IMG/VR virus record: IMGVR_UViG_3300017707_001200
Location: 1 to 62,529 of that record
DNA length: 62,529 nt
Direction: 5' to 3' (one strand)
Source: a virus
Taxonomy: Duplodnaviria > Caudoviricetes
How positions within the stretch are numbered: position 1 is the stretch's first letter; each line of letters starts with the position of its first letter. The translations under genes were made by a program, and so were the position numbers. This document shows positions 25,044-36,595 of this stretch, in pieces. Below the pieces are notes generated by a model. It saw only the letters and a list, made by a program, of their open reading frames with translations, was not told the DNA's origin and did not search any database.

Positions 25044-25633
25044 TACAGGCTCCCTTCGTTCGGTCGGACGTGTCCTGCATCAATCTGACGCTGGATTTCC
25101 GCGTTCACCATCTTGCCAAAGGCGTAAGGTTCGTCCGCGTGGATTGTGGAGATGTAAAGCTCTTCGTCATCCGGGATCGGGTTCCACTTCTTATCCCGCT
25201 TTTTCAGGTTCGCCATGTTATAGGTGACCGGCTCCGGAAGAACGTGGCCCAGGCTGTTGCGCTTCACCGTAAGGATAGCGTAGTCCTCGCTCCAAAGGAA
25301 GGTTGCATTCTCAAGCTCTGCCGTGCGCTTAGCATTCTGTACCGTCACTCGGTCCGGCTCCATCCCGGCAAGGTCACGCCAATACGTCCAGATGTCCCAG
25401 ACGTTCGTGCGCAATACCTCCCGGCGCAGAAGGGCCTGTGAGACTCCCGCTGCGTTGACACGGGCCAGAGTACGAGCGAACTCGATTTCGGCGTTCTCGG
25501 TGGCCTCTGCGGTCTCTCGCTTGATCTGTGCTTCGTACTTCCGGCGTACTTCTGCCTTGATCCGCTTCTTAGCCTCCTGCATCCGGCTACGTGCGTCCTG
25601 TGCCTCGATGATGAGGCTTGTTACGTCCTGCAT
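25043..25633 (-). CDS. Hypothetical protein, N-terminal coiled coil
   Basis: TAATG-coupled ORF. Confidence 0.7.
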   Translation of the reverse strand: MQDVTSLIIEAQDARSRMQEAKKRIKAEVRRKYEAQIKRETAEATENAEIEFARTLARVNAAGVSQALLRREVLRTNVWDIWTYWRDLAGMEPDRVTVQNAKRTAELENATFLWSEDYAILTVKRNSLGHVLPEPVTYNMANLKKRDKKWNPIPDDEELYISTIHADEPYAFGKMVNAEIQRQIDAGHVRPNEGSL

Positions 25634-25974
25634 TAGTTCCTCTTTCCGTGGTCAGTGATGACGTAAATCTCGGTCTCTTGGGGGGCTTCAGCCTTTGCTG
25701 CGGCTAGCATCCGCTTGCGGGCCGGTGGGTTTGCGGTGTGGATGGTGAGAATCTTGGGCCACGCGCTCCAAGAAATTATCCAATCCAATACCTTGAAGCC
25801 AGTGTCATCCCCGCCTAAGTCATGGTCAAGACTGATTTCTTCGAGACTGTCACCCATCTCTATAACAGCGGGGGTGCCGATCATGTACAGATGGCTAATT
25901 GCCGCATCCGAATTTCTTGCTACTGTCCAGCTATCGTCAGGTGCCGGACGTTCGTCCCCAACCCAAAGCTTCAT
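25633..25974 (-). CDS. Stand-alone receiver-like domain (cyclic-phosphate processing receiver family)
   Basis: MKLWVGDERPAP, ISLDHDLG, TIHTANP motifs. Confidence 0.8.
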   Translation of the reverse strand: MKLWVGDERPAPDDSWTVARNSDAAISHLYMIGTPAVIEMGDSLEEISLDHDLGGDDTGFKVLDWIISWSAWPKILTIHTANPPARKRMLAAAKAEAPQETEIYVITDHGKRN

Positions 25975-26337
25975 TTCTCTCTCTTTCGTCGGTGTCTTAC
26001 AACAGTAACACTCATTAATCAGGTTTTGATAGATTAGGCCCGACTCACAGGCAACTCCCAGCAAGTTATCGACCTCCAAGAGAGGATTAGACTAGCGGAA
26101 TCGAGACTGTACAGGCTGGGTAACCGTAGGCTAGCTGAGGTGCGATCCGGGCTGAAACGGCTTTGAGGGGCTAAGTTATTGACCTAGGCCAAAGTGAAAA
26201 ACGTTGATTTTCCGCGGTTTGAGTGAAAGTAGGGTGTCTCTATAGGTGAATATCTTATCATCTATTAATATATTACTGTTAGATTGTTAGTTGTAGTGTG
26301 TGCGTAAGGTATAGGGCACCGAGAATTTTTGGAACGG

Positions 26338-26907: not shown

Positions 26908-27174
26908 TCAGCTAGCGTAAAGTGCTTCAAGTTCAGACTTGGAACCACTCTTTAGCCCCATTTGCTGGATGAACTCCTTGACATGGCGGAGGGTGGTTGC
27001 TGAGTGATCCCAGAGGGGCATGAGAGCAAGAGTCTCGGTACCCTTGTGGAAGGTAGAAACATGAGTGTTGTAGGAGTAAAGGCGCAGTGCTACTCCATCA
27101 TCTTCGATTCGAGCCTTGTTGTAGAAAGACTTGCGGCTGTCGTACTTGGCTTCGAGGTAAGAGGTGATAGCCAT
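26908..27174 (-). CDS. Early hypothetical protein
   Basis: ORF directly below promoter 27217-27245. Confidence 0.7.
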   Translation of the reverse strand: MAITSYLEAKYDSRKSFYNKARIEDDGVALRLYSYNTHVSTFHKGTETLALMPLWDHSATTLRHVKEFIQQMGLKSGSKSELEALYAS

Positions 27175-27216
27175 AGTTTCAATCCCTTGTTAGGTGGTGT
27201 CTTGCTTGTTACTTAC

Positions 27217-27245
27217 AGTTTGCCCTGGTTCGGGCTGGAAGTCAA
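27217..27245 (-). promoter_or_regulatory. Early SigA-like promoter
   Basis: TTGACT-17-CAAACT. Confidence 0.6.
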
Positions 27246-27265
27246 GCGTTTTTCGAAAGAAAGTC

Positions 27266-27410
27266 AAAAAGAAAAAGACGGAGACAGCCCCACACTGTCC
27301 CCGCCTTGGCTAGCTCGTCCCCAGACTCCTAGCCTTGTTGGCAATCCCCCATTGCCGTTGTGCCCGCTGCTATCCCCTTCGGTTCCCCAACCGATTCGGT
27401 AGAACAGGCA
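27266..27410 (-). ncRNA. Predicted small RNA of four G-looped hairpins ending in a U-tract terminator
   Basis: TCGGTT-GGGG-AACCGA; GGCAAT-GGGGG-ATTGCC; GGCTAG..GTC-TGGG-GAC..CTAGCC; GGCGGGGACAG-TGTGGGG-CTGTCTCCGTC-TTTTT. Confidence 0.7.
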
Positions 27411-27413
27411 TCG

Positions 27414-27471
27414 TGCGCCTAGGGGACTCGAACCCCTGTGTAATCCTCGACAAGTCGAAGCCGTTGGCGCT
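27414..27471 (-). ncRNA. Minimal tRNA-like element
   Basis: T-arm AGGGG-TTCGAGT-CCCCT; GCGCC/GGCGC acceptor-like stem; only about 58 nt. Confidence 0.6.
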
Positions 27472-27480
27472 GTGTGAGCG

Positions 27481-27609
27481 TTACCACTCGTTGTCGTGAT
27501 CCACATCGACGTGGAAGCCGTGAGTCTTGCACGGGTAAAGGTCATACCACTTCCCGAATTCCTCCGAGAAATAGCGGCCCTGACGTTCTTCGCCGTAGCA
27601 TTTATCCAT
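27481..27609 (-). CDS. Small 42-aa hypothetical protein (below the ORF-track cutoff)
   Basis: AAGGAGG RBS; MDKCYGEERQGRYF...DNEW. Confidence 0.55.
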   Translation of the reverse strand: MDKCYGEERQGRYFSEEFGKWYDLYPCKTHGFHVDVDHDNEW

Positions 27610-27777
27610 TAAGTCTTAAACCTCCTTGATAGCGAATTCCCTATTTGGGTGAAACTACTGTCGGTTTTTGATAAAGGTTTCTGCATCCTCCCGAGAATAA
27701 AAGTCTTGGAGAAATGCCCAATAGCCTAGATAGTGTTCAAATACGCGGTACATTTCATCTTCCCTTTCGTTACTTCT

Positions 27778-27806
27778 ATTCTGCCCTACGCGAGTGAGAA
27801 AGTCAA
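27778..27806 (-). promoter_or_regulatory. Early SigA-like promoter
   Basis: TTGACT-17-CAGAAT. Confidence 0.65.
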
Positions 27807-28011
27807 GACCCAATTTCGCGAATACGCTTCCATCGCTGCAATACCTCAGAGGCGTCCCACTTCTCTTGCAATGTTGGTTCTCGACTGAGGTTCTTCCACA
27901 GGATCGGGCACCCTGGATTACGGCGGGCATAGGCAAGAATGATGTTTTCTTCGCTGGGTCCAAGCATGATCGGCCCTTTCTCTAGGTTGTTAGTACGCTG
28001 CTTTAGCTCTT

Positions 28012-29029: not shown

Positions 29030-29058
29030 AGTATGGCAGTGATGGGGGTGGGCGTCAA
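29030..29058 (-). promoter_or_regulatory. First leftward SigA-like promoter
   Basis: TTGACG-17-CATACT. Confidence 0.65.
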
Positions 29059-29425
29059 GGGGTACGCGGTGACCAATGGTAACGATACGGTAACGGTGTG
29101 AATGCGGATTGTGAATGCGATATTCGAATATCGTTTCGATTTGTAGTAGGTTTGTTCGATTGTGTGGGGGCAGCTAGGGCCAGGCAGGGCGGGGGGCAGG
29201 GTCGGTATTTGCTATGGGTTTGCTATGAGAGGGCGATGAGCCTCACGCGGGGGCTGGGGGCGGAGGGGGTGTTGAGGTGACGGTCGCTTTATTTGTAAGG
29301 GCGATAAACAACAAGAGGTCTCGGATTTGATCGGACGACGGGGGTGCTATGCCTCGGCTCCCCCATGCGTCCAGATATCGCCCATAGAAAGGTGTCAAGG
29401 TCAAAAAGGTGATAGAATAGATGTA

Positions 29426-35056: not shown

Positions 35057-36435
35057 TATGGGCGCTTATACGCTTGACGAAGTACACGAAGAGATCAAGT
35101 CTATTTACTATTGGTGGGCAATCCAGGCCCCGGGAGTCACCCCGCTAGAGGAGGGTCACCTGGGGGACCTGTGGAGCCTTGCCGACCGGATGCACGCTGA
35201 GGAGGAGAACAATGACGCTTGAAACCGATAACGATATTATCCCCATCAATTGGGGTCTTACCCCTCATCCCCACGAGATTACACTCTCGATCTGTCCTCT
35301 TGATGAGATCGGCCTGCCATTCGAAAAGCGGAGTCTGAGGGTTAGCGTGCCCGATGACCCGAATGAGTGGCAGGATTTTGCAAAGGCGATCTCCACTCAG
35401 GTTGAGAAAACGCTTATCGTTATTTTGGAGGCGGGGAAGAATGGCTAAGGTATACCCCGAAAAGCTCGATATCGACACGAAGCTGCTGGACGTGTTCACG
35501 GATGCCGCCGAACAGCTTATCAACGCTTACGAAGAAGGTAAGGTTACTGCCGAGAGTTGCATCGCAGGTATCAGCGACCTCATTACCCTGACCAAGAAGG
35601 TTCCACGCTCTGTGGCGATCACGATTGGAGATGAAGATGAAGATGACTAGCCGCTACGATGAATACACGCTCACGCACTGGGAGGAGCCAGACGGACTCA
35701 CCTACGGCCATTTCGTGGCGAAGAACGGATACGTCTCGGTAACGCCCGAGCTTATCTACAAGATGCTGAAGTCGTTTGAACCGGTGGCCTACCAGGAGGG
35801 CGAGATCACGCTGGACATTCCTGTTAAGTCCCTGCTGGACTACTGGAAGTCGCTCGGCGGAGAATACGGGGTGGACAAGTAATGGACTACGGCGCAGGAC
35901 TTCTGAAGCACCACCTTCTGTCTGAGCTTGTGGCAGAGGGTCTTCTGGAAAAGGAGGGCGTGGATTTCTATTACCGTGGCCCCCACCAGGACTACCGGAT
36001 CGGAATGACGATTACCGCGGTGAACAAGACCGTTCGATTGAGTGAGGACTAAGACACATGGCCGATATCTATATTGAACTTAAGACTAAGGCCGATGGAA
36101 GTGCCCGTAAAATCGCCAAAGAGATTCTGAAGGTGACCAAGGCATTTCCGAAGGTGAGATTCCGTGTCGATACGGAGTTAGACAATGTGGTCACCTTAAC
36201 GGGCAATATTCCTAGAAAGGACTGAAAATGGTTGACAAGTTCATCAATTACAGTGAAAACGTGGATACTATTCCCGAAGCGTTCTCTTTCATCATGGAGT
36301 ATATGGACCAGTTTAAAAGCCCCAACATCTCTATCCAGCCATATACGTCTTACGAAAGTCTTTCCGATTTGACTGACGACGATGCAGGAGAGCAGAAATT
36401 CGGAGTGAGTGTTTCCGGCACGGTAGAATAGAGAT

Positions 36436-36543
36436 AACAGGTCGGAGTCTCCCTCCCTTCGCTCCATCCCCTGTTGAGAGGCCCCTTCCCTGGCCTCGGG
36501 ACCCCCTGAGAGTTTGAGCATTGCTCCTCCCAGGGGGTCTTTC
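36436..36543 (+). ncRNA. Predicted late small RNA with two C-rich loops and a terminator
   Basis: TAGAAT at 36424; stems AACAGG/CCTGTT + GGAG/CTCC, GAGGCC/GGCCTC, GACCCCCTG/CAGGGGGTC-TTT. Confidence 0.7.
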
Positions 36544-36595
36544 AACATTTGTACCTCGAAATGAGGACAAATGCTAAACTAGGAGGGGAGGCATA

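Follow-up and report, generated by a model that had tools for sequence, protein, structure and literature searches.

In the minus strand of the DNA analysed here (hereafter the window, a stretch of 62,529 nt representing an IMG/VR virus record with terminal repeats), a short region stands out by a series of hairpins that have different stems, but similar loops with runs of G. This raises the question whether the region produces a conserved RNA and, if so, what such an RNA could do. The four hairpins with G-run loops that a sequence-only reading had placed at 27410-27266 were all found by folding. The interval itself is real, but the element is larger, because a tRNA-like module that belongs to the same conserved unit lies directly upstream and had been missed. 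The stretch is most likely the 3' two-thirds of a non-coding RNA unit of about 200 nt (27470-27264, minus strand).

The hairpin array and its place in the phage genome

The window is collinear with Microbacterium phage Lifes, and shared genes have about 68-93% DNA identity. Rightward genes in the window are late genes, and leftward genes are early or replication genes. The G-loop RNA is located in the leftward block, which is the early arm by synteny with Lifes, in line with the early placement that had been proposed from the sequence alone. Immediately before the unit, there is a gene for a protein of 42 amino acids (27481-27609, minus strand), a homologue of Lifes gp120, with a stop codon 10 nt 5' of the tRNA-like element. 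DNA likeness to Lifes stops at this stop codon, and the following ~215 nt of the minus strand do not contain a credible gene. The 42-aa product and Lifes gp120 are 97.6% identical at the amino acid level, compared to only 83% at the DNA level, which suggests strong purifying selection on this tiny early protein. The microprotein contains two Cys and three His residues.

Using a consensus scan, we identified a sigma-70-like motif (TTGACT, 17 nt, CAGAAT) at 27778-27806 (minus strand) as the nearest candidate promoter upstream of the unit, presumably an early one. The next early promoter-like site (TTGACT, 17 nt, CAAACT) is found downstream of the array, at 27217-27245 (minus strand), and judging from the layout may serve as a restart for the 88-aa gene at 26908-27174 (minus strand), the product of which matches phrog_4264. 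The site at 27806 has the layout CTTGAC...A.ACT in common with sites at 29058, 28040 and 27245, also on the minus strand. All four can be described as CTTGAC, a spacer of 17-18 nt, and nAnACT, and in two of the four (27806 and 27245) GTAAC is found shortly after the promoter-like motif. Soil-metagenome contigs were heaped on 27716-27817 and 27196-27262, with a depth of up to ~580, suggesting that the promoter-like motif is common to many related phages.

All hairpins of the array are read on the minus strand. H1 (27361-27410) has a base stem, UGCCUG.../...CAGCGGGCA, that aligns with H1 of the family model R1 (described below), and an apical hairpin, UCGGUU-GGGG-AACCGA, with the GGGG loop at 27388-27385. 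The stretch GAAGGGGA (27380-27373), which had been described as unpaired, is indeed unpaired within the predicted H1. H2 (27340-27356, GGCAAU-GGGGG-AUUGCC) is supported by the fold and by model R1, and its GGGGAUUG is also present in the Lifes-type copies. H3 (27308-27334) consists of an outer stem, GGCUAG/CUAGCC, and an inner GUC-UGGG-GAC with the G-run at 27322-27319; it represents an insertion at the H3 position in the R1 alignment. H4 (27264-27307), which aligns with H4 of R1, is a predicted intrinsic terminator. Its hairpin (27307-27275) has a stem of 13-14 bp with a UGUGGGG or GUGGG loop and is followed by the U-tract UUUCUUUUU. The consensus scan, which looks for a GC-rich stem-loop and a U-tract, also found H4 to be terminator-like (14 pairs, 7 of them G-C, then TTTCTTTTT), as anticipated by the sequence-only reading. 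In total, the array has five G-runs in the window, four of them with an A in the next position, so that GGA results.

The predicted fold is far more stable than expected by chance. The 145 nt at 27410-27266 gave a folding energy of -68.6 kcal/mol (z = -6.05), which was not reached by any of 200 shuffles. With inclusion of the tRNA-like part (27266-27475), we obtained -91.2 kcal/mol for the minus strand (z -4.5, 0 of 200 shuffles) and -66.0 kcal/mol for the plus strand (z -2.1, 6 of 200 shuffles). As the minus strand folds better than the plus strand, the structure is specific to the transcribed strand. Clustering of G-loops within the window, on the other hand, is only modestly unusual. There are 27 sites with a GGGG-loop hairpin on the minus strand and 21 on the plus strand, and three such hairpins per 130 nt are the maximum on either strand, but a cluster of equal size was found in 13 of 300 first-order Markov sequences. 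In a scan of minimum free energy structures, the locus was among 3 of 1560 minus-strand segments with at least two unpaired GGGG hairpin loops. That the array is more than a chance arrangement follows from its conservation in other phages, and not from these tests within the window.

Conservation, covariation and coding potential

The G-loop RNA is conserved, as judged by sequence comparison, in lytic siphophages of Microbacterium that are relatives of Lifes and of cluster ED2. A BLAST search detected the family in 23 Microbacterium phages from GenBank. In Lifes, a nearby gap of ~200 nt without annotation is full of GGGG-loop hairpins, and this gap is kept in BarnCat, WaterT, Cassita and LeeroyJenkins. 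LeeroyJenkins bridges two types of the element. Its 3' half matches Lifes and BarnCat, and its 5' half, comprising a window-like minihelix and H1, matches Wolfstar, Roman, Lupine and others. A search with the gap in Roman identified 19 Microbacterium phage records, 17 of them without annotation at this place, and Fork, Lyell and Musetta from cluster ED2 were among the 19. The part of PMC7302621 available to us describes these three as lytic siphoviruses of cluster ED2, with terminal repeats of 3.1-3.8 kb that carry leftward genes; this part of the paper does not mention a G-loop RNA. In ED2 phages, the element is located inside the direct terminal repeat, and is therefore present twice.

Twelve copies were folded, and all had the same order of parts, namely the minihelix, ACGA, H1 on a conserved base stem, H2, H3 and H4, with G-runs in the loops. 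The window has the family order as well (minihelix, ACGAUGC, H1 with the conserved base stem, hairpins with G-run loops), but departs from its relatives by the linker hairpin, a longer H1, the insertion at the H3 position and the U-tract past H4. In order to search for the element by structure, we used a covariance model (R1) built from 10 relatives, with the window left out. In the 62.5-kb window, R1 had a single match, at 27274-27453 (minus strand), with 29.5 bits and an E-value of about 7e-7, which is a rough estimate due to the short calibration. For comparison, Wolfstar scored 93 bits and LeeroyJenkins 48 bits.

Covariation was quantified in an alignment of 13 copies that was fitted to R1 and thus leans towards the model structure. 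In this alignment, 98.9% of 621 cells pair, and 31 of the 50 pairs have changed on both sides. None of 500 shuffles reached any of the measures, and only 29-44% of cells paired in slid controls. Conservation of the loops in homologs had been named as a test of the hairpin design, and it was observed here: as aligned, the loops have at least GGG in all 13 copies for H1 and H4, and in 12 of 13 for H2 and H3. An alignment of the four Lifes-type copies by MAFFT alone still contained 15 compensatory pairs among 56, mostly in a GGGG-loop hairpin. The pattern of constant loops on variable stems, noticed originally within one molecule, therefore also holds across phages, with compensatory changes in the stems and retention of GGG or GGGG in the loops. 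Because the stems covary while the loops stay constant, the element is clearly selected as RNA. Many G-U and U-G pairs are conserved across the copies and, together with the asymmetry of the fold, they indicate that the transcribed strand is the strand under selection. Not every loop appears to be essential, since a near-identical metagenome variant has GGGA in place of GGGG in the H1 loop, and one soil-metagenome contig joins 27363 to 27411, so that H1 is missing or replaced (47 nt).

The RNA family is absent from Rfam 15, in which no model matched the array at gathering scores. We found no description of the G-loop RNA or of the minihelix in the literature, the supplementary cluster ED maps of PMC7302621 not being covered, and no regulatory RNA described for Microbacterium phages. 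In Hortus1 (cluster ED1), the first 4 kb are devoid of the element. In IMG/VR, searches with the neighbour proteins of 88 aa, 42 aa (as an alignment) and 148 aa did not lead to a confirmed locus, and exact or degenerate patterns for the T arm plus acceptor had 0 matches. A looser pattern had 38, but 0 of the 38 loci match R1, and they were rejected as chance matches. In bacterial genomes, a 23-mer was not found, and a degenerate pattern identified three loci in unrelated metagenome-assembled genomes.

The region itself is non-coding, as far as can be judged by comparison with relatives. It overlaps with an ORF of 93 codons (27545-27264, minus strand), the conservation of which the sequence-only reading had considered an argument against an RNA. 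This ORF starts inside the conserved 42-aa gene, in a different frame, does not have a match by tblastn, Pfam or PHROG, and is broken in close relatives by 1-nt indels.

Flanking genes differ between phages on both sides of the element, and the gene located 5' of the element in Cassita has its homologue 3' of it in the window. Only the window copy has a clear terminator and a new promoter-like site after the array, which suggests a role that is independent of the downstream cistron. In 12 of 13 relatives, there is no terminator past H4, and the ribosome site of the next gene is 40-60 nt away, so that a cis-acting leader would also fit. In ED2-type phages and Wolfstar (L009-L012, L016-L020), the RNA is always preceded by a conserved protein of ~100 aa (8 of 8 loci translated) with the motif MATPHxCHVDCEL...GRYQWELNR and an Arg-rich, variable C-terminus. 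A homologue of this gene was not detected in the window by tblastn.

A tRNA-like minihelix upstream of the array

The element directly upstream of the array (27470-27414, minus strand) resembles the 'top half' of a tRNA without D arm. It comprises an acceptor stem of 5 bp (GCGCC/GGCGC, 27470-27466 with 27419-27415), a linker with an inserted hairpin of 6 bp and a CUUG loop (27460-27445), and a T arm, AGGGG-UUCGAGU-CCCCU in the predicted fold (27437-27421). The 3' strand is continuous up to a discriminator-like A (27414), with CGA next. According to a MAFFT alignment with four relatives, the window copy is equivalent to the minihelix plus a linker insertion of 16 nt, and model R1 aligns the T arm, the 3' acceptor strand and ACGAUGC of the window. 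We defined the minihelix as a module of its own (R2), with a 5-bp acceptor stem, a GG-containing linker of 10-11 nt, a 6-bp T stem, a UUCGAGU-type loop and a continuous 3' strand. In the window, R2 matched the T arm alone (16.5 bits, E 0.55), because the 16-nt hairpin sits in the linker of this copy.

Several more familiar identities were considered and rejected. ARAGORN reported 0 tRNA and 0 tmRNA genes for the window element, and the Rfam tRNA model did not match it at E-values up to 10; the loop of the middle hairpin is 4 nt long. As neither program recognises the element as a tRNA, this identity was dismissed. A tmRNA was likewise not found by ARAGORN or Rfam, and there was only a chance-level likeness of 28 nt to the T arm of mycobacteriophage tmRNAs (E 9). 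An attP site, in which the 3' end of a tRNA serves as the integration core, was discarded since no integrase was seen, both acceptor strands are present, and the relatives are lytic according to the accessible part of PMC7302621. With relaxed thresholds, mascRNA (E 6.9) was the sole Rfam match to the tRNA-like element.

The minihelix is a separate module with a wider distribution than the G-loop array, on the evidence of its occurrence in other phages. Matches to it were found in 43 Streptomyces phage records and in mycobacteriophage LittleE. In phiScoe25, three minihelices are found in three successive intergenic gaps within 1.8 kb, and there are two each in Lika and LittleE. The 44-nt copies are located at L014:568-611, 905-948 and 1631-1674 (phiScoe25), L013:149-192 and 901-944 (Lika), and L015:766-809 and 901-944 (LittleE). 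In Streptomyces phages, the minihelix lies 40-60 nt upstream of start codons. The LittleE minihelix is antisense to the annotated gp35. No G-loop array was found downstream of the minihelices of Streptomyces phages or LittleE, and Rfam did not have a match at any of these loci.

In a plain MAFFT alignment of 12 minihelix copies from the three phage groups, all 121 cells pair, and compensatory changes are present in 9 of the 11 pairs. The near-identical metagenome variant mentioned above has a C to U change in the T stem, by which a G-U pair is kept. Distant soil-metagenome fragments combine a different T stem (GCAAG/CUUGC) with a different GGGG-loop hairpin. The recurrence of the minihelix suggests a tRNA-style punctuation of actinophage early operons. 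Such punctuation of mRNA would depend on tRNA enzymes and would change the way in which these operons are read.

RNase P and tRNA 3'-end enzymes recognise the top half of tRNA, i.e., the stack of acceptor and T arm together with an elbow-like GG. Since the top half is what tRNA-processing enzymes recognise, the module is probably a processing handle. Other tRNA-like processing signals are mascRNA at MALAT1, the tRNA-linked hairpin RNAs of murid herpesvirus 68, and the 't-elements' of plant mitochondria. By analogy, the phage element may be compared to them, as an acceptor/T-arm structure abuts another RNA, which in the known systems is released by tRNA-processing enzymes. The phage element differs in that it has no D arm, anticodon loop or encoded CCA, matches mascRNA only with an E-value of 6.9, and comes from phages of Actinobacteria. 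In the E. coli leuZ tRNA precursor, the 3' external spacer acts as an sRNA sponge; it spans the distance from the tRNA 3' end to the terminator, and in this respect resembles the arrangement in the window. An acceptor stem and T arm with a GG-containing linker replacing the D arm are also features of tmRNA and YrlA (bacterial Y RNA), but the phage element has neither a tag reading frame nor a Ro-binding stem, and was not recognised as tmRNA by ARAGORN or matched by Rfam.

A protein of 148 aa encoded 1.2 kb downstream of the tRNA-like RNA (25633-26079, minus strand) contains a cREC_REC domain (cyclic-phosphate processing receiver, PF20274, E 1.5e-19). With respect to a possible RNA-repair context, no RNA-related domain was found in 10 further neighbouring ORFs.

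Possible functions and partners of the G-loop RNA

The structure, strand, conservation, non-coding nature and independence from neighbouring genes are observed properties of the element, and any function has to be modelled on them. We tentatively favour, at somewhat less than an even chance, an early RNA that is cut at its tRNA-like handle and binds C-rich partners with several G-loops, 6C-type host sRNAs being the leading candidate. In this model, the first part, as a mimic of a tRNA top half (acceptor stem, T arm with UUCGAGU loop, GG-containing linker), would be recognised by host enzymes, RNase P acting at the 5' side and the tRNA 3'-end nuclease past the discriminator-like A. Cleavage at this place would free the downstream RNA from the mRNA. 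The second part would consist of H1-H4, with stems that are free to change and loops that always expose a G-run; in the window phage, H4 would also be the terminator. The freed RNA of ~145 nt would then present several unpaired G-runs at a time, and act in trans in a multivalent manner. By mimicking the G-rich targets of sRNAs with C-rich loops (6C-type, from high-GC Gram-positive bacteria), it would titrate these sRNAs early in infection. Base-pairing to C-runs fits better than a sequence-specific protein site, because the bare G-runs of the loops are kept and the rest is free to vary.

For the S. aureus RNA RsaI, unpaired G-tracts reportedly pair with C-rich motifs of other sRNAs. The phage RNA would, by analogy, likewise offer unpaired G-tracts. 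RsaI is an sRNA encoded in the chromosome, has a dual function and contains two G-tracks, whereas the phage-encoded RNA has four to five G-runs in hairpin loops. As described in the accessible part of PMC6486639, the binding of 6C to single-stranded G-rich segments, many of which are located in loops, takes place without the help of a chaperone, and sRNAs of high-GC Gram-positive bacteria commonly contain unpaired C-rich segments. The idea of 6C as a partner is thereby supported indirectly. The phage RNA has several sites of the kind bound by 6C; the known 6C target sites differ in being present once per regulated mRNA, in the 5' UTR, while the phage sites are clustered in a non-coding RNA. 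The 6C copies that we fetched from other Actinobacteria have 6-7 consecutive C in their loops. Under strict filters, 6C was matched in only 7 of 151 genomes sampled from one phylum, and a 6C hairpin pattern derived from one locus had only Mycobacteriales-type records among the matches listed. Complementarity cannot discriminate between partners, since a four-base G-run pairs with any C-run.

An RNA of the phage itself (36436-36543) had also been suggested as a C-rich partner. A C-rich leader of the late operon is indeed present upstream of the small terminase gene, both in the window (36432-36595, plus strand) and in Lifes (L003:5805-5990). Besides CCCUCCCUUCG, it contains a hairpin whose loop is rich in C and a terminator-like stem, and in the predicted fold its C-rich start pairs with the G-rich ribosome site GGAGGGGAGG. 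In Roman, a phage with the G-loop RNA, no such leader was seen ahead of the small terminase gene. The leader therefore cannot be the family-wide target, which weakens this part of the proposal.

The main rival to action in trans is a processing or stability block that acts in cis on the early polycistronic mRNA and includes a tRNA-like processing site, but has no trans target. Such a block could set mRNA ends, shield neighbouring cistrons against attack by RNase E, RNase J or 3' exonucleases, stop Rho, or affect translation of the next gene. We consider it unlikely, though a serious contender. In its favour, no terminator lies between the array and the next ribosome site in 12 of 13 relatives, and the minihelix occurs alone in successive gaps of Streptomyces phages, 40-60 nt upstream of start codons, which suggests transcript punctuation. 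However, stability or processing alone would not need a G-run in each loop while all stems change, the upstream and downstream genes are not conserved, and the array of the window is set apart from the next gene by its terminator and a further promoter-like site.

A trans-acting RNA could also be a protein sponge similar to CsrB or RsmZ, and sequester a protein with affinity for hairpin loops that contain G-runs or GGA. Its target would be a host factor or a phage protein, and could for example be the Arg-rich protein of ~100 aa that is encoded upstream in ED2 phages, where the gene precedes the RNA in a conserved manner. The likeness to CsrB, CsrC and RsmX-Z lies in a single short G-rich loop motif on unrelated stems and an intrinsic terminator as the last hairpin, for which multivalent titration is the natural reading, and GGA is found at four of the five G-runs in the window. 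The phage motif is a bare G-run and thus differs from A(N)GGA. The nucleotide that follows the run varies, and H2 of ED2 phages reads GGGG-U. Moreover, the phage array is preceded by a tRNA-like module. Rfam models of the Csr/Rsm RNAs were unmatched, the best being CsrC with 9 bits (gathering score 61), and this for the terminator only. No RNA-binding domain and no CsrA were seen among the 19 window ORFs that were scanned, and the ED2 upstream gene lacks a counterpart in the window. To our knowledge, CsrA is not typical of Actinobacteria. We therefore regard a protein decoy as improbable.

An RNA G-quadruplex formed by four loop G-runs, within or between molecules, is very improbable as the functional form. 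The number of hairpins in ED2-type copies is exactly four, all of them with a GGGG-type loop, and the window copy has five G-runs, but stem covariation indicates that the hairpins form, and their loops of 4-5 nt leave little freedom for stacked quartets. In addition, some loops have only GGG (as in H1 of Roman), or GGGA in one variant. That the region encodes a 93-aa protein, or acts as DNA (origin or packaging signal), can hardly be credited despite the open frame and the position inside the ED2 terminal repeat, because the frame is unmatched, overlaps a conserved gene in a different frame and is disrupted by indels and by the 47-nt replacement or loss in one variant, the G-U pairs restrict the structure to a single strand, and the place of the element relative to the ends differs between the window and Lifes-type phages.

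The titration of C-rich sRNAs that we favour can be extended to a more ambitious scheme, a two-part takeover RNA. A tRNA mimic would free the G-loop RNA, which would titrate 6C or other C-rich sRNAs, derepress G-rich ribosome sites (e.g., that of dnaB) and in this way reprogramme host translation, and the minihelix would separately punctuate the early operons of Streptomyces phages and mycobacteriophages. As a whole, this scheme is speculative and rather improbable. We know of very few phage-encoded regulatory RNAs outside enterobacterial prophages. The G-loop RNA sits among the first genes that enter the cell. Should it prove to be a sponge for sRNAs with C-loops, this would be the first case of a phage countermeasure against the main sRNA type of high-GC Gram-positive bacteria, and the poorly understood role of 6C would become directly accessible to study. 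Both the G-loop RNA and the minihelix should be easily testable in phages from teaching collections and in hosts that are non-pathogenic.

The densest G-run cluster of the genome is not in the array, but at 29126-29300 (plus strand), with 11 GGGG per 150 nt. It lies where the leftward and rightward early blocks diverge. The terminal repeat of Lifes has a comparable G-run region (L003:1300-1440), with 14 GGGG per 150 nt. The cluster at 29126-29300 may serve as an origin or a regulatory region, or form quadruplexes at the DNA level.
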